41,360 nucleotides of DNA from Gemmatimonadota bacterium (lineage in GTDB: Bacteria > Gemmatimonadota > Gemmatimonadetes > Gemmatimonadales > Gemmatimonadaceae). The stretch lies in the NCBI GenBank assembly GCA_028287225.1, contig JAQBPZ010000111.1, positions 1 through 41,360 of the forward strand, written 5' to 3'. Below are positions 2-39,798 of the stretch, piece after piece; position 1 is the first letter of the stretch; the number at the start of each line of letters is the position of its first letter. The position numbers and the translations under genes are program-made. The notes beneath the pieces were generated by a model, which searched no databases, was not told the origin of the DNA, and saw only the letters and a list, made by a program, of their open reading frames with translations.

Positions 2-2182
2 CGCGTGTACGCGCTGGTGGAGGCCAAGCCCGGCAGCGGCCTCTATCGCAGCAACGACGCGGGCGAGCACTGGTCGCTCGTCAACACCACGCCGGGCCTC
101 ATCACGCGCCCCTTCTACTACGACAACGTCGACGCCGACCCCACGAATGCCGACGTCGTGTACGCGGGCGCCGAGAGCTTCTGGAAGTCCACCGATGGCG
201 GCCGCACCTTCCGCACGATGCGCACGCCGCACGGCGACAACCACGACATGTGGATCAACCCGCGCGACGGGAACGTGATGATCCAGGGGAACGACGGGGG
301 CGCCAACGTCTCCGTCAATGGCGGCCTCACCTGGAGCACCCAGCAGAACCAGCCCACGGCCGAGATCTACGGCGTCACGGTGGACAACCAGTATCCGTAC
401 CGCGTGTACGGCGCGCAGCAGGATCAGGGCAGCACGCTCATCGTGCCGTCGCTCCCGGTCTCGTCCCTCGCGCTCGACGAGCCGATCCAGTCCTGGCGAC
501 AGGGCCCGGGATGCGAGACGGGCCCGGTGGCACCGAACCGCACCAACCCCGACACGGTCTACGGCGCGTGCAAGGGCCAGTTCAGCCGCATGAGCCTCCG
601 CGCGGGCCAGGAGCAGCAGTCGTGGATCGGCGCGCAGTCGCTCTACGGCAACCCCAACAGCGCGCTCCGCTATCGCTTCCAGCGCGTGTCGCCCCTCGAG
701 GTGTCGCCGCACGAGCCGCACACCGTCTACTTCGGCTCCCAGTTCGTGCATCGCTCGCGCGATGAAGGCACCACGTGGGAGACGATCAGCCCCGACCTCA
801 CCGCCAACGATCCCCGCTACCGCGACGTGATCTCCGGCGAGCCGGTGACGATCGATGTGACGGGTGAGGAGATGTACGCCACGCTGTACTCCATCCGGGA
901 GTCGCCGATCGCCGCCGGCGTCATCTGGGCGGGTGCGAACGACGGCCCCATCAGCGTCACGCGCGACGGTGGCCGCACCTGGAAGCGCGTCACGCCGCCG
1001 GGACTCCCGGCCGGCGGTCGGGTGCAGAACATCGACCCCTCCCCGCACCGCCCCGGCGCCGCCTACGTCGCGGTGCTGCGCTACCTCCTGGGCGACTTCC
1101 AGCCGTACATCTACAAGACGGAGGATTACGGCGCCACGTGGACCCTGCTCACGCGCAGCGGGAGCGGAATTCCCATGGACGCGCCCACGCGCGTGGTGCG
1201 CGAGGATCCCGAGCGCGCCGGCCTGCTCTACGCCGGCACCGAGTTCGGCATGTACGTCTCGTTCAACGACGGCGCGAACTGGCGTCCCCTCCAGCTCAAC
1301 CTCCCCGTCACGCCGGTCACCGACCTCCGCGTGCATCGCGGCGACCTCGTGGTCTCCACGCAGGGGCGCGCCTTCTGGATCCTTGACGACCTCGCTCCGC
1401 TCCGCCAGCTCACCGATGCGGTCACGGCGCGCGGTGCGCACCTCTTCGCTCCGCGCGAGGCGATCCGCTATCGCTACCGCGCCGGCTTCGGCGGTGCCGA
1501 GTCCGACCGCGGCCCCGGCGACGACGCGCCGCAGTATCCCCCCGCGGGCGCGATGATCGACTACTGGCTCGGCGCCGCCGGTGCGCCGGTCACGCTCGAG
1601 GTGCTCGACGCGAAGGGCGCCGTGGTCCGCACCATCGGCAGCGACACCACGGGCACCCGCCTCTCCACGCGCGCGGGCGTGAACCGCTGGATCTGGGACA
1701 TGACGTATCCCGGCCCGCTCAACGGCGCGCGCGCCGGACGTGGCGGCGGTGGACCGATGGCCGCGCCCGGCCGCTACACCGTGCGCCTCACCGCGGCGGG
1801 GCAGACCACGACGCAGCCGCTCGTGCTGCGCGCCGACCCGCGCACCCTGCGCGACGGCATCACGCAGCAGGTCATGGAAGACCAGGTCGCCTTCAACCTC
1901 CAGGCGCGCGATCTCGTCAGCCGCTCCAATGCGTTCGCCGAACAGCTGCGCGCGGCCCGCACCCGGGCGGGCGCCGGAAGGAACGAGGCCCTCGAGGCCA
2001 TCGAGCGCGAATACTTCACGCCGACGGTGCGCTACAGCCGGCCCGGCCTCGACACCCACATCGGCTACCTGTACGGCATGACGCTGGGCGCGGACCAGCG
2101 CGTCACGCGTGATGCGCGTGCACGGCTCGCCGAGCTTCGTGCCCAGCTCGACGGGCTCGCGGCGCGGCTCGCCGCGTTGTAG
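2..2182 (+). CDS. BNR/Asp-box repeat beta-propeller protein (sortilin/VPS10-like), 5' end cut by window edge
   Basis: Frame is open from the window start to TAG 2180-2182. Repeated SxDxGxTW Asp-box motifs: SNDAGEHWS, STDGGRTF, SRDEGTTWE, TRDGGRTWK, TEDYGATWT. Confidence 0.85.
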   Translation, partial: RVYALVEAKPGSGLYRSNDAGEHWSLVNTTPGLITRPFYYDNVDADPTNADVVYAGAESFWKSTDGGRTFRTMRTPHGDNHDMWINPRDGNVMIQGNDGGANVSVNGGLTWSTQQNQPTAEIYGVTVDNQYPYRVYGAQQDQGSTLIVPSLPVSSLALDEPIQSWRQGPGCETGPVAPNRTNPDTVYGACKGQFSRMSLRAGQEQQSWIGAQSLYGNPNSALRYRFQRVSPLEVSPHEPHTVYFGSQFVHRSRDEGTTWETISPDLTANDPRYRDVISGEPVTIDVTGEEMYATLYSIRESPIAAGVIWAGANDGPISVTRDGGRTWKRVTPPGLPAGGRVQNIDPSPHRPGAAYVAVLRYLLGDFQPYIYKTEDYGATWTLLTRSGSGIPMDAPTRVVREDPERAGLLYAGTEFGMYVSFNDGANWRPLQLNLPVTPVTDLRVHRGDLVVSTQGRAFWILDDLAPLRQLTDAVTARGAHLFAPREAIRYRYRAGFGGAESDRGPGDDAPQYPPAGAMIDYWLGAAGAPVTLEVLDAKGAVVRTIGSDTTGTRLSTRAGVNRWIWDMTYPGPLNGARAGRGGGGPMAAPGRYTVRLTAAGQTTTQPLVLRADPRTLRDGITQQVMEDQVAFNLQARDLVSRSNAFAEQLRAARTRAGAGRNEALEAIEREYFTPTVRYSRPGLDTHIGYLYGMTLGADQRVTRDARARLAELRAQLDGLAARLAAL

Positions 2183-2184
2183 GA

Positions 2185-2223
2185 GCTGACGGGCTGACGG
2201 CCGGTGGCCGTCAGCCCGTCAGC
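2185..2223. terminator. Bidirectional hairpin between convergent genes
   Basis: GCTGACGGGCTGACGGCC (2185-2202) is perfectly complementary to GGCCGTCAGCCCGTCAGC (2206-2223). No clear U tract. Confidence 0.6.
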
Positions 2224-2234
2224 GGGCGCGCGAC

Positions 2235-2732
2235 TCACGCGAAGCTGGGTGTGTCGGAGGCCAGTGCGGGGCCCGGCACACCCAGCAGTCGCCGCACCGC
2301 CTCCGTGCGGTACGAGAAGATGCGCCTCAACTGGTACCGCACGAGCGGATGCGCGATCTCCCCGAGCGGAAACAGTGGCAGCCGGTATCGCACCTCGTCC
2401 TCGATGATGGTGCCGCCACGATCGTCGTCGGTGAACGAGTGACGGTGCACCCACTGCGCGTACGGACCGCGCAGCTGCACGTCCACGAACTCCTCATCCG
2501 GCACCCATCGCTCGATGCGCGTGCGCCAGCGCATGGGAATGCCCCGCAGCCCGATCGTGTAGTCGATCAGCGTTCCCGCGGTCATCGCGATCGGCAGCGG
2601 CGTCTGGATGGAGAACGCGACTTCCGGTGGCGTGATCCGGCCGAGGTTCGCCGCGTCGCTGAAGAAGGCGAAGGCCCGGGACCGGGGCACCGCGAGCTGG
2701 ACGCGGGTGCGCAGGACGTGGTCTCGTGTCAT
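2235..2732 (-). CDS. SRPBCC (START/polyketide cyclase-like) family protein
   Basis: 165-aa ORF, ATG at 2730-2732. The N-terminal pattern (VQLAVPRSRAFAFFSDAANLGRITPP) and the size are typical of SRPBCC ligand-binding proteins. Confidence 0.75.
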   Translation of the reverse strand: MTRDHVLRTRVQLAVPRSRAFAFFSDAANLGRITPPEVAFSIQTPLPIAMTAGTLIDYTIGLRGIPMRWRTRIERWVPDEEFVDVQLRGPYAQWVHRHSFTDDDRGGTIIEDEVRYRLPLFPLGEIAHPLVRYQLRRIFSYRTEAVRRLLGVPGPALASDTPSFA

Positions 2733-2797
2733 GCGGGCTCAATGCGCGCGGGCGCCGGGGCGTTCCGGCGGGCGGCGCAGGCGGGCAACGCGAGCGG

Positions 2798-3112
2798 CTA
2801 GCGCTCGTCGTCCACCGCGCGGATCGCGGCCATCACGCGGGCGGCGAATCCGGCGCGAGGGTGCTGCGCCCGGCGCCGCGCGAGGTCGCCGTCCAGCCGC
2901 TTCCAGAACTCCACGTCGCCCTGCGACTGCTCGCGGCGCACACTCGCCTCCGTCGCCTCCCCGTCGAGCCACGCGTGCACCGCCTCGCTCAACGTCAGCG
3001 CGGGCGGGCCGATCGGCACCTCGCGCTCGGCGGGCACACTCCGGGCATCGGGATCAGGCGTCGCGCGCGGGGCGGCAGACTGGTCGTCGCTGGAGTGCAC
3101 GTCGTCGAGCAT
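2798..3112 (-). CDS. Putative short anti-sigma factor (104 aa)
   Basis: Its ATG (3110-3112) overlaps the sigma-factor stop (3112-3114) as ATGA. It has the anti-sigma-like motif AVHAWLDGEATE followed by ARVMAAI. The protein ends before any transmembrane segment. Confidence 0.5.
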   Translation of the reverse strand: MLDDVHSSDDQSAAPRATPDPDARSVPAEREVPIGPPALTLSEAVHAWLDGEATEASVRREQSQGDVEFWKRLDGDLARRRAQHPRAGFAARVMAAIRAVDDER

Positions 3113-3678
3113 CAGGCGTACTTCTCCTCCAGCAGTGCCTGCAGCGCCTCGCGTGCGCGATGCACGCGCATCTTCAGCGCGCCGACGGTGGTGCCGAGCA
3201 GGTCCGCCATCTCCTCGTACGACCGGCCCTCCACGTGCTTCATCACGAACGCCTCGCGCAGCGACGCGGGCAGCGATGCGAGCGCCACGTCGAGGTCGCT
3301 CCGCAGCTCCGTCCGGTCCAGCTCCTCGTCCGGCGTCGCGAAGCCGGACGGCTGGTCGTCCTCCTCGTAGCTGAGGTGCGAGCGGCGGATGTTCTTCAGC
3401 CAGTCCTTGCAGCCGTTCGCCACGATCCTGAACACCCAGGCATCGAAGCGGCCGCGCACCTCCGCGAGGTGCTGGTAGGCCTTGATGAACGACAGCTGCA
3501 GGATGTCTTCCGCGACATCCGGGCTTCCGGTCATGCACAGCGCGTGTCGATAGAGTGGATCACTGTAGCGAGTGATCAGCACGGTAAACTCATCGCGGCT
3601 GCCCGCGAGCACGCGCTGGATGATGCGCTGATCAGAGTCGTCCTGATCAACAAGCAGTTCTGGCTCCGAGGTCCTCAC
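3112..3678 (-). CDS. ECF-type RNA polymerase sigma-70 family factor
   Basis: Region 2 (DQRIIQRVLAGSRDEFTVLITRYSDPLYRHA, FDAWVFRIVANGCKDWLK) and region 4 (LREAFVMKHVEGRSYEEMADLLGTTVGALKMRVHRAREAL) are present. Start is set at GTG 3676-3678; an upstream ATG at 3762 is the alternative. Confidence 0.9.
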   Translation of the reverse strand: MRTSEPELLVDQDDSDQRIIQRVLAGSRDEFTVLITRYSDPLYRHALCMTGSPDVAEDILQLSFIKAYQHLAEVRGRFDAWVFRIVANGCKDWLKNIRRSHLSYEEDDQPSGFATPDEELDRTELRSDLDVALASLPASLREAFVMKHVEGRSYEEMADLLGTTVGALKMRVHRAREALQALLEEKYA

Positions 3679-5100: not shown

Positions 5101-6003
5101 ATGGTGGACAAGGATCAGGAGATCGAGGACGCGCCGGCAGCTGCCGCCGCTCCCGCGCCTCGTCGGGGACCCGGGCATCGTGGTGCCGACATGCGCGACA
5201 CCGTGGCCGAGATGGCCGAACGGGCGCAGCTGATCAGCCAGGAGGCCGGCAGCAAGGTGTCCGCGGCCATGAAGGACGTGATCAGCGCCGCCGCCGGCCT
5301 CTCCGGCTTCGCCATCGAGAGCGCCCGCGACCTCGTGCAGTACATGGTGCGGCGCGGCCAGATGACGCAGGAAGAGGCGGACAAGCTGCTCCGCGAGGCC
5401 GAGGCCGCTCACGAGCGGAAGCCCGCGAGCGAGAAGGAGCGCCCGACCTTCTCCAAGGTGGCCGCCGAGAAGGCCGCGGCCGACAAGATCGCCCGCGACG
5501 CCGCCAACGCGGCCGCGGCGCTCCTCGCCCCGCCCCAGCGTCCTGGCGCGTTCTCGCTGCGTCCGGCAGCCCCCAAGCCCCCTGCGCCGGCCCCAGCGGC
5601 CTCGTCCGCTCCGGCCCCTGCGCGTGCGGCGGATGCCGCTCCGGCGGCCCGCTCTGCGCCCGCCGCGAAGGCCGCGCCCGCCAAGACGGCACCCGCGGCC
5701 AAGGCAGCCCCCGCCAAGGCCGCGGCGAAGGCGCCCGCCAAGTCGGCGGCCAAGGCTCCTGCAAAGGCTCCGGCCAAGGCTCCCGCGAAGTCATCGGCGA
5801 AGGCGCCCACCAAGTCCGCCGCCAAGACACCCGCGAAGTCCGCCGCCAAGGCACCTGCCAAGGGTGCGGCCTCGCGGCCCGCCAAGTCGGCCGCCAAGGC
5901 CGGCGCCAAGTCGAGCGCGGGCAAGTCGGGCGCCGGCAAGACGAGCGGCGGCAAGTCGGCCGGCAAGGGCGCCGCGAAGTCTCCGGCAAAGAAGAAGAAG
6001 TAG
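5101..6003 (+). CDS. Phasin-like N-terminal domain fused to a histone-H1-like Ala/Lys/Pro repeat tail (PhaF/AlgP-like)
   Basis: N-terminal segment (ARDLVQYMVRRGQMTQEEADKLLREAE) resembles the PHA-granule phasin domain. The C-terminal ~170 aa are AKAPAKSAAK-type repeats ending in KKKK. Confidence 0.7.
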   Translation: MVDKDQEIEDAPAAAAAPAPRRGPGHRGADMRDTVAEMAERAQLISQEAGSKVSAAMKDVISAAAGLSGFAIESARDLVQYMVRRGQMTQEEADKLLREAEAAHERKPASEKERPTFSKVAAEKAAADKIARDAANAAAALLAPPQRPGAFSLRPAAPKPPAPAPAASSAPAPARAADAAPAARSAPAAKAAPAKTAPAAKAAPAKAAAKAPAKSAAKAPAKAPAKAPAKSSAKAPTKSAAKTPAKSAAKAPAKGAASRPAKSAAKAGAKSSAGKSGAGKTSGGKSAGKGAAKSPAKKKK

Positions 6004-10272: not shown

Positions 10273-10442
10273 GGGGACGCAGGACGGTCGGACGCTTTTC
10301 GGTTTACGGTTTGTCGGTTTGTCGGTTTATGGCGTGCCTCGGGACGCATTGGCTGACCGGGGCTGGCCGTAAACCGACAAACCGTAAACCGACAAACCGC
10401 AACCGCCAGACGGTCCTGTGCGGTCCTACCGTCCTACCGTTC
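10273..10442. repeat. Nested palindromic intergenic element with CGGTTT(A/G) repeat arms
   Basis: Left arm 10300-10330 (CGGTTTACGGTTTGTCGGTTTGTCGGTTTAT) is complementary to right arm 10367-10404, with at least 21 bp perfect. Outer arms (GCAGGACGGTCGGACG vs GGTCCTACCGTCCTACCGT) are also complementary. Core GGCGTGCCTCGGGACGC is at 10331-10347. Confidence 0.8.
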
Positions 10443-10496
10443 TCCACGGTGCATCCCTTGCCTGTAGGCCCCGGTACCCCAACGCACGGAACCGCC

Positions 10497-11627
10497 ATGC
10501 CCATCCCCCGCCGCCTCGCTGCCCTCGCCGCCCTCGCGCTCGTCGCCGCCTGCGCCCCGGGGACGGCGCCAGCCCCGACGCCGTCGCCGATGCCCGACGC
10601 GCGAACGCCGACGAACCCGAACGCGGGGCCCACGCCGCTCGTGAACACCACGTGGCCCGTCCGGTCGCGCGAGCACGTCGACCTCTGGCTGCACAGCTAC
10701 GCCCTGCTGACGCGCGACACCACGCTGGTCCCCTACTTCGATCGCGGCTACCGCGAGCGCATGCTCACGGCGCGGCGCGAGCGGTCCGCCACCTCGCTGC
10801 TCGACACCAACCGCGACCGGCTCCTCCAGCGCATCGCCGTGAACCCTGCGCTGGCGACGAACGGCCAGTTCCTCCCCCTCTACTTCGATTCGTGGGAGCG
10901 GATGCGACAGGCCATCGACCTCACGATCCGCGCGAACGGCAACCCGAACGCCTCCAATGACCCGGAGACGCGCACCTACATCGCGATCATCGCCAGCGCC
11001 TTTCCCTCGGCCCCCGATCGCGAATGGCTGCGCACCTTCTCGGAGAGCGCCGACGACGAGAGCCGGCGCTTCTATCACGCATGGTGGACGGGCGCCGGTG
11101 CGGCGCGCGGACGCGCGGTGCAGCACGTGGACTCGCTCTGGCAGCGGCAGTGGCGGCCCGCGCTCCAGCGCTTCCTGAACAACACCCAGCAGCAGAACGG
11201 CGAGCTCTATCTGTCCGCGCCACTCGGCGGCGAGGGGCGCACCGTGCATTTCGGCAAGCAGCAGAACGCGGTCGCGGTGCCGCTGCCGGAGTCGTTCGCC
11301 CAGAGCGACGCCGTGCTGTACGTGATGGCGCACGAGATCGCTGGCACCCTGGCCAACGCCGCGATCGAGGACAACACCACGCCCGCCGATCGCCGAGCGG
11401 GCGTGACGTCCCGCTTCGAGCAGTCGGCCGCCGTGCGGGCCGGCGCACTGCTGCTGGACCGCGTGCTGCCATCGGCCGTGCCGGGCTACATGCGCTACTA
11501 CCTCCAGCAGGCGGGCCGCACCGCGCCGAACGAGCCGCGCACCGCGTTCAACACCGCCTTCGCCCTGCCCGACGCCGTGCGCGACGCGCTCGCCCGGCAG
11601 ATGGACGTGATCCTCGGCGGGATCTGA
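10497..11627 (+). CDS. Hypothetical lipoprotein (376 aa)
   Basis: ATG 10497. Signal peptide plus lipobox (LALVAAC). No family recognised. Confidence 0.75.
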   Translation: MPIPRRLAALAALALVAACAPGTAPAPTPSPMPDARTPTNPNAGPTPLVNTTWPVRSREHVDLWLHSYALLTRDTTLVPYFDRGYRERMLTARRERSATSLLDTNRDRLLQRIAVNPALATNGQFLPLYFDSWERMRQAIDLTIRANGNPNASNDPETRTYIAIIASAFPSAPDREWLRTFSESADDESRRFYHAWWTGAGAARGRAVQHVDSLWQRQWRPALQRFLNNTQQQNGELYLSAPLGGEGRTVHFGKQQNAVAVPLPESFAQSDAVLYVMAHEIAGTLANAAIEDNTTPADRRAGVTSRFEQSAAVRAGALLLDRVLPSAVPGYMRYYLQQAGRTAPNEPRTAFNTAFALPDAVRDALARQMDVILGGI

Positions 11628-11636
11628 AACAACAAA

Positions 11637-11844
11637 GCGAGTAACGAGTAACGAGTAGGTCGAGAGGCGTCCCGGACGGTGGTGTCACCCTGCAGCCGCA
11701 GGCTGTCGGGGCATACTCTCCCGTGATGGGGACTGGCCCTGGGCACGGGACGGAATGCCCCGACACTCGCGATGCTCGCGCGGGGTGACATCCGCCCGGG
11801 ACGCCACGCTGCAGCTACTTACTCGTTACTCGTTCCTCGTTATT
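11637..11844. repeat. Rod-like nested palindrome with CGAGTAA heptad arms (same family as 37387-37588)
   Basis: Arms 11637-11658 / 11815-11844. GGCGTCCCGG 11666-11675 pairs with CCGGGACGCC 11796-11805. GTCACCC 11684-11690 pairs with GGGTGAC 11783-11789. GTCGGGGCAT 11705-11714 pairs with ATGCCCCGAC 11755-11764. Confidence 0.85.
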
Positions 11845-11853
11845 CTTCACCCC

Positions 11854-12654
11854 ATGCCGGATTCCAACCTCCCCCAGCGCATCGACCGCGCGGCCGTCGA
11901 CCGCGTGCTGGCGCGCGCGCTGGAGCTGCAGGCGTCGGCGTCGGGAGAGCCGCAGGCGGAGCAGCTCACGGAGGCGCAGCTGCTCGAGCTCGCGAAGGAG
12001 GTGGGGCTCGATCCGGTGAACCTCCGGCAGGCGCTCGCCGAGGAGCGTACCCGCGTGACCGTGCCGGAGGAGCGCGGCGTGCTCGCGGCCATGTACGGAC
12101 CCGCGTACGTCAGCGCGCAGCGCACCGTCCCCGGCACCCCGCAGCAGGTGCTCAAGGCGCTCGACGACTGGATGCAGCGGCAGGAAGGGCTCTGCGCGCA
12201 GCGCTACTTCAGCACCGAGCGCGTGGTGTGGGAGCCGCAGCAGGGCGTCGTGGGGCTCGTGCGTCGCGCCGTGAGCGGCCGCGCGCACTCGCTCGCGCGC
12301 GCCTCCGACGTCGCGGCCACCGCCATCGCGGTCGACGCCAGCCGCGTGCTCGTGCGCCTCGACGCCCGGCTCCTCGGCTATCGGGCCCTGATGGCGCAGC
12401 AGAACGCCATGCTCACCGGCGCCAGCCTGGTGGGTGGCGGCATCCTCGCCGTCCTCGCCTTCCCGGTCTTCGCGATCGCCGCGCCCGTCGCGGTCATCGC
12501 CCCCGCCGCCTGGGCCACCGCACGCGGCTCCCACCGCCGCACCGTCGACCGCGCCCAGATCGCCCTGGAACAGGTGCTGGACCGCCTCGAGCGCGGTGAA
12601 GCCGGACGGCCGCCAACCTTGCTGAGCATGCTGGCCGCGGCCGTACGACGATAG
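11854..12654 (+). CDS. Hypothetical membrane protein (266 aa)
   Basis: ATG 11854. Hydrophobic stretch GASLVGGGILAVLAFPVFAIAAPVAVIAPAAWA. No family recognised. Confidence 0.7.
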   Translation: MPDSNLPQRIDRAAVDRVLARALELQASASGEPQAEQLTEAQLLELAKEVGLDPVNLRQALAEERTRVTVPEERGVLAAMYGPAYVSAQRTVPGTPQQVLKALDDWMQRQEGLCAQRYFSTERVVWEPQQGVVGLVRRAVSGRAHSLARASDVAATAIAVDASRVLVRLDARLLGYRALMAQQNAMLTGASLVGGGILAVLAFPVFAIAAPVAVIAPAAWATARGSHRRTVDRAQIALEQVLDRLERGEAGRPPTLLSMLAAAVRR

Positions 12655-12655
12655 C

Positions 12656-12880
12656 GGGCGCTCGCGTTGCTCGCTTGGCGGGCGGGTCGCGTGGAACGCG
12701 ACCCTTGGCGGGCGGCTGCCCCTGTCGCCTTCGGCGACGGCGGGGCTATGCCTTGGCGGGCGGGCGGCTACGCCGCCCTTGCCGGTACTGCCGAGGGGTT
12801 TCCGCCACGCGAGCAGCGCGAGCGCCCGCCAAGCCATAGACCGAGCGCAGCGACGGTCACGCGCCCGCCAAGGCGGCGCC
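12656..12880. repeat. Composite palindromic element built on the 12-mer CTTGGCGGGCGG
   Basis: Direct copies at 12674-12685, 12704-12715 and 12752-12763. Inverted copies (CGCCCGCCAAG) at 12823-12833 and 12862-12872. 12656-12674 is complementary to 12809-12827 (18/19). Internal hairpin GGGTCGCG-TGGAA-CGCGACCC at 12684-12704. Confidence 0.75.
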
Positions 12881-12901
12881 GGAGGCGCCGCCGCCCGGCT
12901 G

Positions 12902-13948
12902 TCAGATCGTCACGCGCTGCTTCATCACCCGGTCCGCCAGCCAGTCGAGCCCTCGGTTGCTCAGCACCATCAGGAAGCCGAGCAGGGTCAGCGACTTCAC
13001 CTCGCGGCGGGTGATCTTCACCACGTCGCGGCGCGCCATGGCCTGCGGGGTCCGCGTCAGGTCGCGCAGCGTCGCGTATGCGAAGAGCAGCGGCAGCAGG
13101 CAGAAGAGCCGGATCGATACGGCACGCCGAGGGATGTGCAGCAGGTAGCTGCGCGCCCCCTCCAGGTCGTGCCACGCCAGCTGCACCAGCATGCCGAGCG
13201 CGGACTGGGTTCCCTCGAGCTTCGCGCCGCTCAGGACGTCGGCATGGCTGCTCCCGTGCGCGCGCAGCAGCTCCTGCGGCACGTAGATGGAGTTCTCCCG
13301 CTCGGCGTCCGTCGCGACGTCCTTCAGGATGTTCACCGTCTGCAGCCCCTCGGCGAAGGCGCGGCACCGCTCGCGCAGCACGGCGTACCGCCGCTCGCCG
13401 ATGCTCCCCGCGTGCTCGTGCCACAGGTCGGTGAGCAGGTAGCCCACCGTGCCGGCCACGTAGTAGCAGTACTCCTTGTACTCGTCGAGGCTCTGGATCC
13501 GGATGCCATGCGGATACAGCAGCACGAACTTCCGCATCCCCGTGATCATCTCGCCCACCCAGCGGCGCACCGCGGCACGCGTGGGCGGCGACATCCGCCG
13601 GTACAGCACGAACACGAGGTCGGCGTTGCGCGTGAGGCGCACGTGGGCCGGCTCGCCGGTGAGCGTCGCGACGCGCGCGGGAAAGGCATCGGCCGCCGCG
13701 GGATCGTCGAAGCAGGCGAGCAGCTCGTCCAGCAGCGCCGCCTTCGCCTCCGCCGGCTGCGTCGGCTCGTCCTCGAGCGTGTCGGCGATGCGGCACAGCA
13801 GGTACGCCGTGAGCACCGCCTGCCCCAGCGCGCCAGGCAGCACGCGGATGCTCAGCGCGAACGTCCGCGAGACCGCCGGCAGCACCTCCCGCCCGAACCG
13901 CTCCGCCTCGGCAACTCGCGCGGCATCCTCGGCCACCATCAGCTCCAT
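12902..13948 (-). CDS. Squalene/phytoene synthase family protein
   Basis: 348 aa, forming the 3' part of the 1679-aa track ORF. Asp-rich motifs RIADTLEDE and LKDVATDAERE; also YCYYVAGTVGYLLT. Confidence 0.85.
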   Translation of the reverse strand: MELMVAEDAARVAEAERFGREVLPAVSRTFALSIRVLPGALGQAVLTAYLLCRIADTLEDEPTQPAEAKAALLDELLACFDDPAAADAFPARVATLTGEPAHVRLTRNADLVFVLYRRMSPPTRAAVRRWVGEMITGMRKFVLLYPHGIRIQSLDEYKEYCYYVAGTVGYLLTDLWHEHAGSIGERRYAVLRERCRAFAEGLQTVNILKDVATDAERENSIYVPQELLRAHGSSHADVLSGAKLEGTQSALGMLVQLAWHDLEGARSYLLHIPRRAVSIRLFCLLPLLFAYATLRDLTRTPQAMARRDVVKITRREVKSLTLLGFLMVLSNRGLDWLADRVMKQRVTI

Positions 13949-15808: not shown

Positions 15809-15859
15809 CTTTCCCGCCGCGCCACGCCCCTCCTCGTTCCTCGTGCCTCGCTCCGTGCA

Positions 15860-26108: not shown

Positions 26109-28196
26109 TCAGCGCATTCCCGCTTCCTCCACCACCTTCTGCGCGGCGTCGTTCGGCATCTCCTCATAGCCGCTGAAGTGGCGCCTGAAGAGTGCGCGGC
26201 CGTGGGTCATCGACTGGAGGGCGCTGGCGTACAGGTGCAGTTCGGACTGCGGCACCACCGCGCGCACGCGGGTGCCGGGGGCGCCCTCCGCGGTCTCCGT
26301 CCCCAGGATATGTCCGCGGCGCGCCGACAGGTCGCCGAGCACGTCGCCCAGGGATTCCTCCGGCGTCACGATCTCCACCTCGTCCAGCGGCTCGAGCAGC
26401 ACCGGCTTGCACTTCGGTGCGATCGTGCGGAACGCCTGGATGCCCGCCATCCGGAACGACATCTCGTTGGAATCCACCGTGTGGTACGAGCCGTCGTAGA
26501 GCTCCACCGTGAAGTCCACGAGCGGGAAGCCCGCGAGCACGCCGCGCTCGGCCGCTTCGTGGATGCCCTTCTCCACCGCCGGGATGAACTTGCTGGGAAT
26601 CGCCCCCCCGACGAACTGGTCGGCGAACTGGATTACCTGCCCGCGGTCGGCCGGCGCGATCCGTACCCAGCAGTCGCCGAACTGCCCGCGGCCCCCCGAC
26701 TGCTTCTTGTGTCGCCCCTGGCCCTCCGCCCGCACCCGGATCGTCTCGCGATACGCGATGCGGGGGCGCCGCAGCTCCGCCGCCACCCCGCACTTCCGGC
26801 GCAGCTTCGCCAGCGCGATCTCGAGATGCCGCTCGCCCATGCCCGCGAGGATCGTCTCGTGGGTCTCCACGTTGTAGCGCGTCTGGAGCGTCGGGTCCTC
26901 GTCGTGGAGGCGATGCAGCCCTGCCTGCAGCTTTTCCTCGTCGGCGCGGTTGGTGGCGAAGATCGCCATCTCCACGAGCGGCTCGGGATACTGCACCTGC
27001 GGCAGCCGCACCGGGTGCGCGCGCGTGGACAGCGTGTCGTTCGTGTGGGTGTTGCGCAGCCGCGCGACGCAGCCGATGTCGCCCGCGTGCAGGCGCGGGA
27101 CCTCCACGCGCTCGCGCCCCTGCGGCGCGGCGAGGTGATTGAGCTTCTCGCCCACGTCGCGCGTCGCGTTGAACACCTCGTCGCCGCTCGCCACGCTCCC
27201 TGAGAGGATGCGGAAGATGCTCACCTCGCCCACGTGCGGCTCGCTCTGGGTCTTGATCACCAGCGCCGAGAACGGCGCGGCGTCGTCCGCGTGGATCTGG
27301 ACGGTGGCCGCCCCCTCCGCGCCGGTGAAGGCGTGCACCTCCTCCATCTCGTACGCGCTCGGCATCAGCTCCACGATCGTCGAGAGCACGGCGCGCGTGC
27401 CGTAGCCGAGCGTGGCGCTCACGCAGAACAGGGGGAAGAGCTCCAGCCGCTTCACCGCCTCCCGCATCGCGGCGATCGCCTCGTCGCGGCTGATCTCCCC
27501 GCCGTTCAGGTATCGCTCGAGCAGCTCGTCATCAGTTGACGCGATCGTCTCGATGAGCTCCGCGTGGTACCGGTCGAACTGCGGACGCACCTCCTCGGGC
27601 ACCGCCGTCTCCGTGTAGCCGCCGCTCCGTCCGCCGGCGGTGTAGACGTGCGCCACGCCGTCGAAGAGGTTGACGACGCCGTGAAAGTCGGCGCCGCTGC
27701 CCACCGGCACCTCGATCGGGATCACCTTGGTCGTGAGCGTCGAGCGGATCCGGCGATAGATCGCGTCGAAGTCCGCGTGCTCCTTGTCCATCATCGAGAC
27801 CACGAAGAGCACGGGATCACCGCGCGTCAGCGCCTCGCGGAACATCCGCTCCGTGCCGACCTCGATCCCCGCGGTGGCGCTGATCACGCAGAGCGCGCCG
27901 TCGGCCGCGGCGAGGCCCGCGATCGCGTCGCCCTGGAAGTCCAGGAAGCCCGGGGTATCCAGCAGGTTGATCTTGGTGCCGGCCCACTCGGCATGCGCGC
28001 AGCCGAGGTTGATGGAGTAGCCCCGCTCCACCTCTTCCGGCGCCGTGTCCGTGAGGGTCGTGCCCTCGGCGATGGAGCCGTGGCGGCGGGTGGTGCCCGA
28101 CGCGAACGCCAGCGCGTCCACCAGCGTGGTCTTGCCACTGCCCCCGTGTCCCACCACGGCGATGTTGCGGATGCTCGATGCCCGGTACGCTCGCAT
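26109..28196 (-). CDS. Elongation factor G paralogue with non-canonical G motifs
   Basis: Full five-domain EF-G colinearity. Start is the ATG at 28194-28196, preceded by GAGG. G1 is GHGGSGKTT, G3 is DTPGFLDF, G4 is SMMD. Confidence 0.9.
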   Translation of the reverse strand: MRAYRASSIRNIAVVGHGGSGKTTLVDALAFASGTTRRHGSIAEGTTLTDTAPEEVERGYSINLGCAHAEWAGTKINLLDTPGFLDFQGDAIAGLAAADGALCVISATAGIEVGTERMFREALTRGDPVLFVVSMMDKEHADFDAIYRRIRSTLTTKVIPIEVPVGSGADFHGVVNLFDGVAHVYTAGGRSGGYTETAVPEEVRPQFDRYHAELIETIASTDDELLERYLNGGEISRDEAIAAMREAVKRLELFPLFCVSATLGYGTRAVLSTIVELMPSAYEMEEVHAFTGAEGAATVQIHADDAAPFSALVIKTQSEPHVGEVSIFRILSGSVASGDEVFNATRDVGEKLNHLAAPQGRERVEVPRLHAGDIGCVARLRNTHTNDTLSTRAHPVRLPQVQYPEPLVEMAIFATNRADEEKLQAGLHRLHDEDPTLQTRYNVETHETILAGMGERHLEIALAKLRRKCGVAAELRRPRIAYRETIRVRAEGQGRHKKQSGGRGQFGDCWVRIAPADRGQVIQFADQFVGGAIPSKFIPAVEKGIHEAAERGVLAGFPLVDFTVELYDGSYHTVDSNEMSFRMAGIQAFRTIAPKCKPVLLEPLDEVEIVTPEESLGDVLGDLSARRGHILGTETAEGAPGTRVRAVVPQSELHLYASALQSMTHGRALFRRHFSGYEEMPNDAAQKVVEEAGMR

Positions 28197-28210
28197 GCGT
28201 CTGCCTCGTG

Positions 28211-28387
28211 CTATGAGTAGGTGCCCGCGCACGGAGGCCACTGTCGGGACGCACGAAAAAGGGCGCCTTCGGGGGCGATGCGCGTCGTGCGCGCGTCGCT
28301 CCTGAGGCGCCCTGCTTCTTCGTCCGGCAACACGCGCTCCCGCCCGGAGTCCCCGGGCCTGGAGTGGTGAGTGGAGAGCCGTGGCAT
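28211..28387 (-). CDS. Candidate 58-codon leader ORF upstream of the EF-G paralogue
   Basis: AGGAGGAGG lies 7 nt before the ATG (28385-28387). The TAG at 28211-28213 is 14 nt before the EF-G ATG. The ORF spans the terminator hairpin. GC3 is lower than in neighbouring genes, so coding status is uncertain. Confidence 0.25.
   Translation of the reverse strand: MPRLSTHHSRPGDSGRERVLPDEEAGRLRSDARTTRIAPEGALFRASRQWPPCAGTYS
28255..28313 (-). terminator. Intrinsic terminator/attenuator in the EF-G paralogue leader
   Basis: AGGGCGCC (28260-28267) pairs with GGCGCCCT (28306-28313). An inner stem is GCGATGCGCG/CGCGCGTCGC. The hairpin is followed on the minus strand by TTTTT (28256-28260). Confidence 0.6.
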
Positions 28388-28501
28388 GGCCCCACCTCCT
28401 CCTGCGGTCGCCCTACTGATGCATCATCCCCGTGGGAGTGTCAAGCAGGCCCAAGGAAACGGGTGGTCCCAGGACTGCGTTTGCGTGATCCCTCAGTCGA
28501 G

Positions 28502-28700
28502 GGGGGAGACCGCATTTGACGGATGCCACGGATCAGAACGGATAACGGCCGCTCTATCAGCCCCGGCGAACCGACCCCGGATCTGGAGCCTCCGGAAATC
28601 ACGGAGGTGTTCGTGGGCGTGGCGCTGTACCCATCCACGACGAGGCCAGCCGAGCGATAATCCGTTTCACCCGTGGCATCCGTCAAATGTTGTCTCCCCC
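28502..28700. repeat. 199-bp structured element bounded by 30-bp inverted repeats
   Basis: GGGGGAGACCGCATTTGACGGATGCCACGG (28502-28531) matches the reverse complement of 28671-28700 at 28/30. Internal hairpin CCTCCG/CGGAGG at 28589-28607. Confidence 0.8.
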
Positions 28701-28731
28701 TTCCAGTGAGGGGCCGGCCCTGGCGATACAG

Positions 28732-36091: not shown

Positions 36092-37381
36092 ATGGACAGG
36101 CGCGTATTCATGAAGTCCGGCGCGATGGCGCTGGTGACGATGGGGCTCAGCCCGAGCTTCCTGCGGCGCACCGCGTTCGGCGCCGAGCTGCTCCAGGGCG
36201 CGGGCACGCTCGGCGCGGCGCGTGGCAAGACGCTCATCTGCCTGTTCCAGCGCGGCGCGGCGGACGCGCTCAACGTGGTGGTGCCGCATGGCGAGGCGGC
36301 GTACTACCGGCTGCGTCCCAACATCGCGATCGGCCGGCCCGAAGTCGCGGGCCAGGGCGCCATCGACCTGGACGGGTTCTTCGGGCTGCATCCGGCCCTC
36401 GCGCCGATGAAGCCGTTGTGGGACCGCGGACTGCTCGCGCCGATCCACGCGGTGGGCAGCCCGAGCAGCACGCGCTCGCACTTCGATGCGCAGGACTACA
36501 TGGAGACCGGCACGCCCGATCAGAAGGGCACGCACGACGGCTGGCTCAATCGCTACCTCGCGCTGCAGGGCACCTGCGAAGCCGGCTGCGCGCACGACAC
36601 GGCCCACGCGAAGGACTCGCCGTTCCGCGCCGTCGCGATGACCCAGCAGACGCCGCGCATCCTGGAGGGGCCGGCGGCGACGATCGCCATGAACTCGCTC
36701 GACGAGTTCAGCGTGCGCGCCACCGGCCCCGCCGTGGACCGGCTGGAGGCGCTGTACCGGACCGGCTCGGCCGACGTGGTGCATGCGGCCGGCGGCGAGA
36801 TGTTCGAGGCGGTGAAGATCCTGCGCGCCGCGAACCCGGAGCGGTACCTGCCGCAGAACGGGGCGTCGTACCCCGCCAGCCAGTTCGGCCAGCGGCTGCG
36901 CCAGATCGCGCAGCTCATCAAGGCCGACGTGGGGCTCGAGGTGGCGTTCGCCGACGTCGGCGGCTGGGATACGCACGTGAACCAGGGCGGCGCCACCGGG
37001 CAGCTCGCGGGACGGCTCGACGACTTCGCGCGCTCGATCGCCGCGCTCGTGGCGGACCTCGGCGACCGGATGGCCGACACCACGATCATGACGATGTCCG
37101 AGTTCGGCCGCACGGCGCGGCAGAACGGCAACGGCGGCACCGACCACGGGCATGCGAGCGCCCTCTTCGTGATCGGCGGCGACGTGAAGGGAGGGAAGGT
37201 CTACGGGCGCTGGCCGGGCCTGGAGCTCGAGCAGCTCTACGAGGGGCGCGACCTGGCACTCACGACCGACTTCCGCGCGGTGTTCTCCGAGGTCGCCGCG
37301 AAGCAGCTCGGTGCAACGCGGCTGGACGCGCTCTTCCCGGGCTTCGAGTCGCCCAGGGCGTCGTGGCTCGGGATGGTGTGA
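36092..37381 (+). CDS. DUF1501 family (sulfatase-fold) protein with a twin-arginine signal
   Basis: ATG 36092. Tat-like MDRRVFMKSGAMALV. GGWDTH and GTDHGHA motifs. Confidence 0.9.
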   Translation: MDRRVFMKSGAMALVTMGLSPSFLRRTAFGAELLQGAGTLGAARGKTLICLFQRGAADALNVVVPHGEAAYYRLRPNIAIGRPEVAGQGAIDLDGFFGLHPALAPMKPLWDRGLLAPIHAVGSPSSTRSHFDAQDYMETGTPDQKGTHDGWLNRYLALQGTCEAGCAHDTAHAKDSPFRAVAMTQQTPRILEGPAATIAMNSLDEFSVRATGPAVDRLEALYRTGSADVVHAAGGEMFEAVKILRAANPERYLPQNGASYPASQFGQRLRQIAQLIKADVGLEVAFADVGGWDTHVNQGGATGQLAGRLDDFARSIAALVADLGDRMADTTIMTMSEFGRTARQNGNGGTDHGHASALFVIGGDVKGGKVYGRWPGLELEQLYEGRDLALTTDFRAVFSEVAAKQLGATRLDALFPGFESPRASWLGMV

Positions 37382-37386
37382 AGAAG

Positions 37387-37588
37387 AACGAGTAACGAGT
37401 AACTGAATAACGAGTGGCGTCCCGGGCGTTGGTCATCCCGTGAGCCGCAGGCGAACCGGGATCGTCTCTCCTTGCGGCCTGGCCAGTCAATCCGCAGTGA
37501 AGGACGATCCCGGTTCGCTGCGCTCACGGGATGACAGGGACGCCCCCCGGCTTACTCGTTACTCGTTATTCAGTTCTCGTTACTCGTT
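37387..37588. repeat. Rod-like nested palindrome with CGAGTAA heptad arms (same family as 11637-11844)
   Basis: Arms 37387-37415 / 37551-37588. GGCGTCCCGG 37416-37425 pairs with GGGACGCC 37537-37544. GGTCATCCCGTGAGC 37431-37445 pairs with GCTCACGGGATGAC 37522-37535. GCGAACCGGGATCGTC 37451-37466 pairs with GACGATCCCGGTTCGC 37503-37518. Confidence 0.85.
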
Positions 37589-37593
37589 GCCGT

Positions 37594-39798
37594 TCAGAAG
37601 TGGAAGATCTTCCGGAGCACCTTCCCGATGCCGTCGACGCCCTTCTGCACGGGGTCGGGAAGGGGGACGCCGCCCGGCACATCCATGGGGAGGGTGTCGT
37701 CCACCGGCGCAGGCTCGGTGTGCACGTTGCAGACTTCGCGCGGCTCCGTGCCCGGCTTGAAGTACTGCCGCTGCCGCACCGGGCACCATTCGCCGGCGAG
37801 CATGCCCGTTTCCGGGTCCACGACGGCCATCGTCATGCCCGCAGGGGGCTGCCAGGCCTGCGCGGACGACGCCGGCTCCTTCCATCCATTGAGGTAGAAC
37901 TCGGCCCACGCCGGCGCGGCGAGGTGGCCGCCGGTTGCGCCCGGCGCGATCGGCCGCGGGTTGTCGTAGCCGAACCACACGCCGGCGACGAGGGTGGGCG
38001 AATAGCCCACGAACCACACGTCGGCCGCGTTGTTCGTGGTCCCCGTCTTTCCCGCCACCTGGCCCTTCACCCCCGCGTCGCGGAGCGTGCGTCCCGTCCC
38101 GTTGTCGACGACCCCCTTGAGCATCTGCGTGATCTGGTACGCGTCACGCTGGTCCATGACCGTGTCGGCGGGGGCGATCTCGGCGCTCCACAGCACCGTG
38201 CCGTCGGCGGCCTCGATGCGCCGCACCAGGCGCGGGTGCACGCGCAGCCCGCCGTTGGCGAACGGCGCATAGGCGGCGACGAGCTCCAGCGGCGTCACCT
38301 CCACGGCGCCGAGCGCCATCGACGGATAGCTGGGCAGCGGGCTCGAGATGCCGTTGCGGCGCGCGGCGTCGATCACGCGCGGGATGCCGACCGTCTGGCT
38401 GACCCGCACCGCTGCGGCGTTCGAGGAGATGGCAAGCGCCTTCGTCAGCGTGATGGTGCCTTCGTACTCATCGTAGTTGCCTGGACGCCAGACCGTCCGC
38501 CCCTGCTGGATCTCCACCGGCTCGTCGTCCACCAGCGTCATCGGGGTCATGCCGGCCCGCATCGCCGCCGCATACACGAACGGCTTGAACGCCGACCCCG
38601 GCTGGCGCCGCGCGTTGAAGGCGCGGTTGAAGCCACGCTTGCTGCGTCGCCCGCCCACGAGTGCGCGGATGTCGCCGCTCACCGGGTCCAGCGCGACGAG
38701 CGCGCCCTGCGCCGCTTCGGGCACGCGGTTCCCCGCCGCCTGCGTGGAGCGCGTCACGAGCGTCGTCCCCCGCAGCACGGCGCGGTCGGCGGCGCGCTGG
38801 GCGCCAAGGTCGAGCGTGGTGTAGACCGTGACGTCACCCTCCTTGAGGGCATCGGGGCGCAGCGAGTCGATGAGCGCGCGCACCGCGTCGAGGGCCAGCG
38901 GCTCGTCCTTCACGTCCGGGCGCCATTCGTCCTCGGCGATGCGGAGCGGCACCCGCTGCGTCGCCGCCGCCTGCTGCGGCGTGAGGTAGCCCGCGTCCGC
39001 CATCAGCGCGAGCACGAGGTTGCGGCGCTTGAGGCCGCGCTCGTAGTGGTCGCGCGGCGTGTAGGCGCTCGGGCCCTTGGGCAGCGCGGCAAGCATCGCT
39101 CCCTCGCTCAGCGTGAGCTGCGAGACGTTCTTGCCGAACAGGTCGCGGCTCGCCGCCTCTACCCCGTTCATGCCGTTGCCGAGATAGATGATGTTGAGGT
39201 AGAGCTCGAGGATCTGGTCCTTGCTGAGCTCGCCCTCGATGAGGCGCGTGAGCCGCAGCTCGATCAGCTTGCGCCGCAGCGTGCGCCCGTAGCGCTTGTT
39301 CACGAGGAAGGAGTTGCGCGCCACCTGCATGGTGATCGTGCTGAAGCCCTCGCGCACGCCGAGGTGGCGGACGTTGGAGAGCGAGGCGCGGAACACCCCC
39401 TTCCAGTCGAGCCCGTTGTGCTGGTAGAAGCGGCGGTCTTCCGTGGCGAGGAACGCGTTGCGGACGTGCTCGGGGATGGACGAGATGGGCACGTTGACGC
39501 GCCGCACCAGGGCGATGCGGCCGAGGAAGCGGTCGTTGCGGTCCACGATGCGTCCCCCCTCGCCGGGCCGGAACGCGCGAATCTCCGCGCGCGAGGGGCA
39601 CCCCTCGAACCCGCACGTCCCCAGCCAGGCGTCGAACAGCACGATGCCGATGCAGGCCAGCCCGAGCGCAGCCAGCGAGCGCCAGCGTTTCCGCATCCAG
39701 ACACGTGCGGGGACGGGCTCGGCCGGCTCGCGGAGCCGCTGGCGAAGAAGGTCGAGACGCTCGGAGAGGCGCAGGAGACGAGGGGGCTGAAGTGGCAT
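37594..39798 (-). CDS. mrcA: Penicillin-binding protein 1A (bifunctional transglycosylase/transpeptidase)
   Basis: GT51 motifs (EDRRFYQHNGLD, GFSTITMQVARN, RKLIE), transpeptidase motif (RQPGSAFKPFVY) and KTGTTN. Confidence 0.95.
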   Translation of the reverse strand: MPLQPPRLLRLSERLDLLRQRLREPAEPVPARVWMRKRWRSLAALGLACIGIVLFDAWLGTCGFEGCPSRAEIRAFRPGEGGRIVDRNDRFLGRIALVRRVNVPISSIPEHVRNAFLATEDRRFYQHNGLDWKGVFRASLSNVRHLGVREGFSTITMQVARNSFLVNKRYGRTLRRKLIELRLTRLIEGELSKDQILELYLNIIYLGNGMNGVEAASRDLFGKNVSQLTLSEGAMLAALPKGPSAYTPRDHYERGLKRRNLVLALMADAGYLTPQQAAATQRVPLRIAEDEWRPDVKDEPLALDAVRALIDSLRPDALKEGDVTVYTTLDLGAQRAADRAVLRGTTLVTRSTQAAGNRVPEAAQGALVALDPVSGDIRALVGGRRSKRGFNRAFNARRQPGSAFKPFVYAAAMRAGMTPMTLVDDEPVEIQQGRTVWRPGNYDEYEGTITLTKALAISSNAAAVRVSQTVGIPRVIDAARRNGISSPLPSYPSMALGAVEVTPLELVAAYAPFANGGLRVHPRLVRRIEAADGTVLWSAEIAPADTVMDQRDAYQITQMLKGVVDNGTGRTLRDAGVKGQVAGKTGTTNNAADVWFVGYSPTLVAGVWFGYDNPRPIAPGATGGHLAAPAWAEFYLNGWKEPASSAQAWQPPAGMTMAVVDPETGMLAGEWCPVRQRQYFKPGTEPREVCNVHTEPAPVDDTLPMDVPGGVPLPDPVQKGVDGIGKVLRKIFHF

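Follow-up and report, generated by a model that had tools for sequence, protein, structure and literature searches.

REP dimers and REPINs are the closest described counterparts of the elements considered here, with miniature inverted-repeat transposable elements (MITEs) also close. Repetitive extragenic palindromic (REP) sequences, REPINs and bacterial interspersed mosaic elements (BIMEs) form species-specific families that are mobilised by RAYT transposases (PMC3116915, PMC3733652). In a REP dimer, conserved inverted units enclose variable, structured spacers and the whole lies after genes, mostly between co-directional or convergent open reading frames (ORFs), and each REP unit is marked at one end by a conserved tag, GTAG or CGTC, that stays unpaired (PMC3733652). 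The two elements described here, element A (11628-11853) and copy B, lie in a 41,360-nt stretch of DNA from a Gemmatimonadota bacterium (contig JAQBPZ010000111.1 of assembly GCA_028287225.1), which is called the window throughout, and we regard them, at a probability of roughly 0.55, as members of a lineage-specific palindromic family of MITE or REPIN type that would act as a bidirectional hairpin terminator or 3'-end protector. Like REP dimers and REPINs, both are non-coding, intergenic and placed after genes, and both consist of two conserved inverted modules around a variable, self-complementary spacer; species-specific families, the folding into one long hairpin and the proposed roles in termination or mRNA stabilisation are further points in common. 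A REP unit, however, is a stem-loop of 20-40 nt, whereas the arms here measure ~70 nt, do not fold by themselves, carry tandem heptads and have no consistent unpaired GTAG/CGTC tag, and the elements are 210-256 nt long against ~100 nt for a REPIN.

Element A fills the gap between the TGA stop at 11625-11627 of one gene and the ATG at 11854 of the next, the two genes being co-directional. It is nearly fully self-complementary over ~210 nt and is predicted to form a single rod on either strand: the RNA fold of the + strand has -136.5 kcal/mol, compared to -87.3 +/- 4.6 for shuffled sequences (z -10.7, with 0 of 200 shuffles as good), and that of the - strand -129.4 kcal/mol (z -8.2). An earlier note on this DNA had listed the paired segments, had placed the start of the palindrome 10 nt after the stop codon and its end just before the ATG, and had proposed folding both strands; all of the segments and the 10-nt distance from the stop codon were found as described, and the rod appears on each strand. 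The outer arms consist of 7-nt repeats (a heptad pattern that occurs 8 times in the window, versus 0.05 expected), and Tandem Repeats Finder reports repeats of period 7, with 2.9-5.3 copies, at 11638-11657, 11819-11842, 37387-37415 and 37552-37588. Both arms of A, and likewise both arms of B, hold stop codons in all three frames.

The second copy cited by the earlier note (37387-37588) is real and extends over 37382-37593, lying 0-7 nt from both convergent stops, and it forms a rod as well (-145.8 and -138.1 kcal/mol on the two strands, z -14.5 and -13.7). A and B have ~70 nt in common at each end, made up of GAAGAA, (CGAGTAA)n, GGCGTCCCGGGCGG and GTCAYCCCG. A third member, here called A', occupies the site of element A in the sister lineage L150 (L numbers denote loci and contigs of the comparison), so that six arms are available, two each from A, A' and B. 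Their alignment gives a shared end of approximately GAAGAAnAA-(CGAGTAA)2-3-(8-20 nt)-GGCGTCCCGGGCGGnTGTCAYCCCG, with GGCGTCCCGGGCGGaTGTCAYCCCG as the family consensus of the inner arm; each arm carries 2-5 of the stop-bearing CGAGTAA heptads, and a GAAGAA-like flank is present at 4-5 of the 6. An nhmmer profile of the arm scores 55-67 bits on all six, and in the 1.3 Mb of gathered DNA its matches elsewhere cover the heptad part only, with no full-arm match. The interiors of A and B are unlike each other, yet each pairs with itself, and CTGGCC is central in all three copies. Since A and B share these ends at a distance of 25 kb and in unrelated contexts, some transfer between loci is required. 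The coordinates are collected in the table.

Table. Parts of element A, copy B and the genes on either side of them (positions in the window)
Feature	Position	Strand	Remark
A-rich left flank AACAACAAAG	11628-11637	+	Reads CTTTGTTGTT on the - strand, the U-rich tail of the hairpin there
Left heptad arm (CGAGTAA)3	11638-11658	+	TAA in all three frames
Inner-arm module GGCGTCCCGG (11666-11675)..GTCACCC (11684-11690)	11666-11690	+	Six-arm alignment
Variable self-complementary interior, 92 nt	11691-11782	.	Fold and comparison with the L150 copy
Side mini-hairpins	11693-11705 (CAGCC-GCA-GGCTG) and 11771-11783
Interior pair GTCGGGGCAT / ATGCCCCGAC	11705-11714 / 11755-11764
Apex CCCGTG...CACGGG, central ACTGGCC	11720-11749
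Right inner-arm module GGGTGAC (11783-11789)..CCGGGACGCC (11796-11805)	11783-11805	+	Complement of 11666-11690
Right heptad arm ACTTACTCGTTACTCGTTCCTCG = ACTTACTCG TTACTCG TTCCTCG	11817-11839	+	- strand: CGAGGAA CGAGTAA CGAGTAA GT
T-rich tail TTATTCTTCACCCC, with -10-like TATTCT at 11841-11846	11840-11853	+	7 nt before ATG 11854
Upstream gene, 376 aa, no Pfam family	10497-11627	+	Its transcript would enter element A
Downstream gene of 266 aa without a Pfam family; probably leaderless	11854-12654	+
Copy B	37382-37593	.	Same family; exactly fills the gap between the convergent DUF1501 and PBP1A genes
DUF1501 gene	36092-37381	+	Convergent neighbour of copy B
PBP1A gene	37594-39798	-	Convergent neighbour of copy B

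In 11 related genomes only 25-48 nt separate the two genes at site A, while L150 (the closest relative found, with a neighbour protein 95% identical) has the 256-nt element A' there, with the same arms and a largely different interior. With these relatives empty and the sister lineage filled, element A is an insertion relative to most relatives. A' is also a rod (-159/-158 kcal/mol, z -11.5/-10.4), and its identity to A is 64% overall and 55% in the interior, compared to 90% for the adjacent coding sequence. Long palindromes can arise by amplification or mis-assembly of metagenomes, and a chimeric palindrome of that kind was considered as an explanation. Three contigs from three other metagenome samples, however, contain the locus of element A at 99.7-99.96% identity, which means that the same sequence stands in four contigs; a diverged orthologue is found in yet another sample, and the flanking genes are intact. 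Element A is therefore no assembly artefact, an explanation that can be taken as effectively refuted. JGI samples in which the organism occurs are 3300059325, 3300053229 and 3300066006, and the sister lineage occurs in 3300048594. Further hairpins with GGTACTC/CGAGTAC units stand in L150 at 1735-1775 and 1820-1945, in the gap after the 266-aa gene, and arms of the CGAGTAC type also occur in L139:1587-1907 and after a stop codon in L145.

Site B is likewise polymorphic, with a gap of 10-23 nt in 7 syntenic relatives, so that presence/absence of the MITE type is seen at both sites (11 loci lack an insert at site A, which is filled in L150 and the window, and 7 loci lack one at site B). In 8 other relatives site B holds near-perfect hairpins of 99-223 nt, each with a sequence of its own and unrelated to copy B, whose arms are mostly tandem units of 7-9 nt (e.g. 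AGGAATT, GGAGTCA, AGGGATC, CACTCACC and GTTCATCCT). Two more look-ups of site B added a hairpin-free gap of 63 nt and a locus that is not syntenic, and a protein search for the site of copy B in the sister lineage of 95% identity found no relative closer than 82%. At site A, too, other lineages have hairpins or arrays of different make: L134 has a (CGTGATC)8 hairpin, L152 at least 8 tandem CTCGCTC units reaching the contig end, and L136 a remnant, a single CTCCTCGCT before the same TATCTT box, at exactly the position of the L152 array. Altogether, ~25 distinct long palindromes were found in 525 kb of Gemmatimonadaceae DNA, about half of them with arms of 7-9-nt repeats. From this comparison it seems that repeat-armed palindromes repeatedly and independently come to occupy the same gene-end sites across Gemmatimonadaceae.

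These observations bear on an origin in situ and without transposition, in which a native gene-end hairpin or heptamer would have grown by slippage and arm-to-arm template switching, making the elements local terminators rather than mobile DNA. The L152 array of at least 8 CTCGCTC units precisely where L136 has one CTCCTCGCT is what such growth would look like, and the repeat unit at site B differs in every species, with tiny palindromes even at 'empty' sites (e.g. L158 and L162). Heptad number varies as well upstream of thyX, where direct TYCTCGN heptads, which belong with those of A's right arm to one heptad family, stand immediately before the start codon: 3 units in the window (15831-15854), 6 in a relative of 83% identity (L152:3799-3840) and none in a relative of 80% identity (L153:14277-14320). 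Template switching is moreover able to create and extend hairpins (PMC8794818). Taken alone, however, growth in place leaves unexplained how A and B come to share ~70-nt ends 25 kb apart. It also fails to explain the complete chromosome of Gemmatimonas sp. DEX182b (NZ_CP050872.1), in which an unrelated 120-nt palindrome is present as a single copy at site B (the DUF1501/PBP1A gap) and again as a five-copy tandem array 3.3 kb away, the copies being 85-88% identical (L196:408-1000 and L196:4264-4385). We consider a purely local origin rather improbable. The DEX182b palindrome, being at two loci, indicates that genome-specific multi-copy palindrome families are a general trait of Gemmatimonadaceae.

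Within a copy, the two arms change in concert. Copy B has an 8-nt insertion, CTGAATAA, among its left-arm heptads and the complementary TTATTCAG in its right arm, neither of which is present in A or A'; two independent matching insertions are implausible, so either one arm templated the other or the palindrome was regenerated after the insertion. In the three sequences A, A' and B (the only ones on which this count is based), 15 of 76 consensus pairs keep their pairing through two-sided changes, and the folds of the two strands are of similar stability. Imperfect inverted repeats are known to undergo template switching, which creates as well as maintains hairpins (PMC8794818, PMC7202029), and co-evolution of the arms is the pattern expected of intramolecular template switching, being by itself no proof of selection on an RNA. 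Strand asymmetry, tried as a measure of such selection, was too weak to be of use, since the + strand is more stable by only 1-8 kcal/mol and G-U counts are low.

With regard to function, the earlier note had stated that the element lacks a U tract, which is wrong. In the 8 nt after the last CTCG, element A reads TTATTCTT on the + strand and CTTTGTTG on the - strand (running on to CTTTGTTGTTT), copy B reads TTCTTCTT on the - strand and TTGCCGTT on the + strand, and A' reads TTATTCTT and TTCTTCAG. These first 8 tail nucleotides hold 4-6 T on all six strands, in interrupted tails, in DNA that is 14% T; at that composition the chance of at least 6 T in 8 is 1.7e-4 and that of at least 4 in 8 is 0.017. 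T-rich tails on both strands give element A what looks like the layout of a bidirectional terminator (A-rich flank, hairpin, U-rich flank), with an enormous stem. The likeness to bidirectional intrinsic terminators extends to the GC-rich stem, the A-rich 5' and U-rich 3' flanks on both strands, the position right after stop codons and, for copy B, the location between convergent genes. An intrinsic terminator, however, has 5-15 pairs, whereas the stem here has ~90-100 and is followed by an interrupted U tract (UUAUUCUU); moreover, the same ends are repeated elsewhere and most orthologous sites have no such hairpin. The statement that element A is not a plain terminator is borne out. Every examined hairpin of this kind in the window lies after the 3' end of a gene. 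Across 24 hairpins, an A-rich left and T-rich right arm is only a weak trend (9 elements versus 3). Stops in all frames, considered as a rule for the whole class, were rejected as not general, being found in 9 of 44 arms versus 2.4 expected (A, B, L155, L191 and one arm of L134).

The earlier note had also seen no room for a promoter or a Shine-Dalgarno (SD) sequence before the downstream gene. In the window, the last 13 nt of the gap nevertheless hold a TAnnnT box, TATTCT, which abuts the end of the element. A hexamer of this form, starting 11-14 nt and ending 6-7 nt ahead of the ATG, is conserved in 18 of 18 orthologues of the 266-aa gene (L132-L154), including those where a gene is inserted upstream. 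In Actinobacteria and Deinococcus, leaderless mRNAs, which need no SD, are recognised by a -10 box that stands 6-7 nt ahead of the start codon. The conserved box suggests that the 266-aa gene is leaderless and has its own promoter, and leaderless genes may be common in Gemmatimonadaceae.

A -10-like box next to the ATG also means that the hairpin probably lies outside the downstream mRNA, which speaks against a role of the leader or riboswitch type and bears on the possibility that the element is a discrete structured non-coding RNA, be it a small RNA, a substrate for processing by RNase III or a leader that regulates the downstream gene in cis. Its extreme predicted stability and the pairing kept through sequence change would fit such an RNA, and RNase III could plausibly cleave a long perfect duplex. 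There is, however, no Rfam family match: a search of the whole window at the gathering thresholds returned nothing, and in permissive mode around A and B the best models were microRNA precursors with 30-48 bits, against thresholds of 137-268. In addition, the two strands fold about equally, as those of a DNA palindrome would, the interior is unconserved even in the sister lineage, and the site is empty in most relatives. Altogether, a discrete structured RNA appears very unlikely.

Our preferred reading, a dispersed palindromic family of MITE or REPIN type with a terminator-like action, would work as follows. The family would have spread between loci by transposition or ectopic copying and, within a locus, would grow and change by slippage of 7-nt units and by template switching, with complementarity kept through intramolecular template switching within the hairpin, through selection for pairing, or through both. 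The transcript of the upstream gene (at site B, those of both convergent genes) would fold into a very stable rod with a U-rich tail, which would end transcription and/or block 3'-to-5' decay, an action that would be bidirectional and would suit copy B between its convergent genes. The heptads would halt ribosomes in any frame before they reach the stem. At site A, the downstream gene would be transcribed from its own leaderless promoter, the -10 box abutting the element, so that element A would insulate its two neighbours without regulating the downstream mRNA. We class element A as a palindromic repeat of intergenic DNA that probably acts as a terminator or insulator. Since most relatives have no hairpin at site A, the element looks tolerated or mildly useful rather than required.

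In several respects the elements resemble bacterial MITEs, of which Correia/NEMIS in Neisseria, ERIC, RUP and the cyanobacterial Nezha are examples: the size range, the terminal inverted repeats, the lack of coding capacity, the presence/absence polymorphism and a hairpin RNA if co-transcribed are all comparable. Unlike MITEs, they are complementary over their whole length, copies share their ends only, and no parent insertion sequence is known. Of the mobile palindrome of REP/MITE type that the earlier note had considered, what stands is the presence of ~70-nt ends at two loci and a site that is empty in 11 relatives and filled in the sister lineage, while the hallmarks of transposition and the expected further copies did not turn up. 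Arms as REP stem-loop units were rejected, as the four arms of A and B have no fold of their own (z +0.1 to +1.5 versus shuffles when folded alone as DNA). In A, the heptads of either arm are followed by GTAG, which is not the case in B or A', and CGTC is present inside GGCGTCCC but base-paired. REPs and REPINs number tens to hundreds of copies per genome; here two copies are present in 41 kb.

A number of observations weigh against the preferred reading. A target-site duplication is not seen, the flanks AACAACAAAG / TTATTCTTCACC (A) and AGAAGAA / TTGCCGT (B) not being direct repeats; the Pfam scan of the 20 window proteins found no transposase and no Y1/RAYT-like protein; and the arm profile revealed no autonomous element with the same ends in the 1.3 Mb. 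The known family comprises two loci in the 41-kb window and one orthologous copy, and in their interiors A and B are far less alike than recently active MITE copies usually are. On the functional side, the stem has ~10 times the length required for termination, with a degenerate U tract after it. Neither copy was reported as a site by simple promoter and terminator scanners (the terminator rule, with a loop of 3-8 and at most 20 pairs counted, is probably ill-suited to a bulged rod of 100 pairs). With most relatives lacking a hairpin at site A, a need of the host for the element is not evident.

A search for further copies, made by pattern in genome, metagenome and viral collections, yielded none. 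The pattern CGAGTAACGAGTA..GGCGTCCC matched 9 loci in a set of 185,579 species genomes, of which 0 are true family members; one of them, L120, has heptads and a GGCGTCCC..GGGCGGAT stretch in common with the family but is otherwise different. A stricter pattern found 3 unrelated loci in the JGI metagenome set, a search of little power because it did not return the window's own sequence, the organism being absent from that set, and two pattern scans of viral contigs gave 0 matches.

The heptad itself is far more widespread than the family. Exact (CGAGTAA)3 was found in more than 119 contigs, from Chloroflexota, Cyanobacteriota, Bacteroidota, Planctomycetota and others (loci L001-L119). Of 112 cases in these loci with three or more units read as CGAGTAA, 55% have the array, in coding orientation, where an ORF of at least 100 codons ends, versus 15% for random positions (29% for the reverse orientation); 18 times the TAA that stops the ORF belongs to the array itself. 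Intergenic heptamer repeats are known from cyanobacteria (STRR, TAACTGA) and also from Beggiatoaceae, where they form direct arrays, mostly just upstream of start codons (PMC4679880). The heptads here resemble them in having stop-bearing 7-nt units, in being intergenic, in their patchy distribution across phyla and in the lack of an explained mechanism, and copy B even contains one TAACTGA; they differ in forming complementary hairpin arms just after stop codons.

It could be proposed that the heptads are the functional part and offer a binding platform to a protein (e.g. a cold-shock-domain or S1-like protein) that would recognise RNA or DNA in single-stranded form with a register of 7 nt, the hairpin masking or exposing them in post-transcriptional control of the neighbouring genes. 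Besides the spread of exact (CGAGTAA)3 over many phyla and its bias for ORF ends, the TYCTCG heptads recurring upstream of thyX without any hairpin would agree with this, as would a review that has one cold-shock protein bound per heptamer (PMC4679880). However, there is no candidate protein, the units are wholly different between the related hairpins of different species and sometimes 8-9 nt long, and the heptads in A and B are predicted to be fully base-paired, which together make such a platform unlikely.

Among the loci with exact heptads, the Chloroflexia metagenome-assembled genome (MAG) STL-CHL24 (L004, L009, L013, L027, L034, L035, L060, L073 and L075) has many arrays of (GTCGTGA)n/(GTGCTGA)n followed by (CGAGTAA)4-5 and CGAGGGG, all of whose units carry TGA or TAA; L034 has a perfect 45-bp hairpin consisting solely of CGAGTAA/TTACTCG. 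L120:3487-3790, from an unclassified MAG of 59% GC, is a 300-nt multi-hairpin element with outer arms of the CGAGTAA/TTACTCG type, which provides the stop of a 481-aa ORF (2059-3504, ...AVLSNE*) and contains small internal hairpins with TCTCCGA/TTCGGAGA loops; three tandem repeats of ~190 nt lie nearby at L120:4478-5200. Within the clade of the window, CTCG in 7-nt phase is over-represented, with 13 arrays versus 1-7 for control tetramers.

A broader proposal, which we put forward tentatively and hold to be rather improbable, is that A and B belong to an undescribed, fast-turnover class of 'repeat-armed palindromes' that recur at the same gene ends in Gemmatimonadaceae and are possibly linked to the cross-phylum stop-bearing heptads. 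Its members would have a GC-rich inner stem between outer arms of 7-9-nt tandem units, many of them with stop codons, and a sequence that differs from species to species; such a class would point to a dedicated mechanism of generation or propagation, or to a conserved heptad-reading factor, instead of ordinary MITE transposition plus neutral slippage. A literature search on the heptad and on repeats of Gemmatimonadetes gave nothing relevant, and no publication was found on repeat-armed palindromes at gene ends or on stop-bearing heptads at ORF ends. In architecture, eukaryotic foldback (FB) transposons come near, with long inverted terminal repeats made of short tandem sub-repeats and a snap-back hairpin; they are, however, eukaryotic and much larger, with a transposase in autonomous copies, and no homology is implied.

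The surroundings of the elements are those of an ordinary chromosome. The DNA is 71% GC and belongs to Gemmatimonadaceae, from which all orthologues of the flanking genes come, and the window encodes, among others, an ECF sigma factor, a CoA transferase, ThyX, two D-Ala-D-Ala-ligase-like proteins, an EF-G paralogue, DUF1501 and PBP1A. Identification of the elements as attC sites, CRISPR repeats, retron msr/msd or tRNA-like origins was rejected, as the flanks are conserved syntenic chromosomal genes and there is neither a spacer array nor a matching motif.

The window has several other repeats. A second repeat-armed hairpin, at 10296-10402 (and 10415-10445), lies in the gap before the gene at 10497; its arms are TTTCGGTTTACGGTTTGTCGGTTTGTCGGTTT and the complement, in 7-8-nt CGGTTTR units, around a GC-rich inner stem GGCGTGCCTCGG / CCGGGGCTGGCC and followed by direct repeats of the GTCCTACC type. 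Its polarity is opposite to that of A and B (left arm T-rich, right arm A-rich), and the gap as a whole folds with -116 kcal/mol (z -6.4). A compact hairpin at 2185-2223, (GCTGACGG)2 ... (CCGTCAGC)2, sits precisely in the space between the genes 5-2182 (+) and 2235-2732 (-), which are convergent; it has no T-rich tail and may be an example of an ordinary terminator in this genome. A GC-rich block at 12655-12830, with three direct CTTGGCGGGCGG units and inverted copies of them (28-nt arms, 93% complementary), separates the 266-aa gene from the convergent ORF 12768-13796 (-). Judged by synteny with L151-L153, this ORF should be squalene/phytoene-synthase-like; the gap between the two measures 35-253 nt in relatives. 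In the 570-nt gap upstream of the EF-G paralogue (26109-28241, -), a rod of ~230 nt at 28485-28715 (42-nt arms, 88% complementary, -137 kcal/mol, z -6.9) is unrelated in sequence to either A or B and shows no clear tandem repeats. Finally, a coding tandem repeat at 5680-5975, with GCCAAG-rich units of 12/15/24 nt, gives an alanine/lysine-rich product resembling a histone-like tail and differs in length by 15 nt between the window and contig L129 from another sample.

The elements have a practical side, as they break metagenome assemblies (contig L152 starts inside one) and mislead gene callers into false N-terminal extensions or small ORFs. They would also be a natural example of perfect pairing that is kept while the sequence drifts at or above the neutral rate, as template switching between the arms predicts. 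The heptads at ORF ends across phyla, together with gene-end sites that are hit repeatedly, could provide testable leads for the unexplained heptamer repeats of bacteria. If the preferred reading is true, this high-GC bacterium may end and insulate its transcripts with large, quickly replaced hairpin cassettes instead of compact, conserved terminators.

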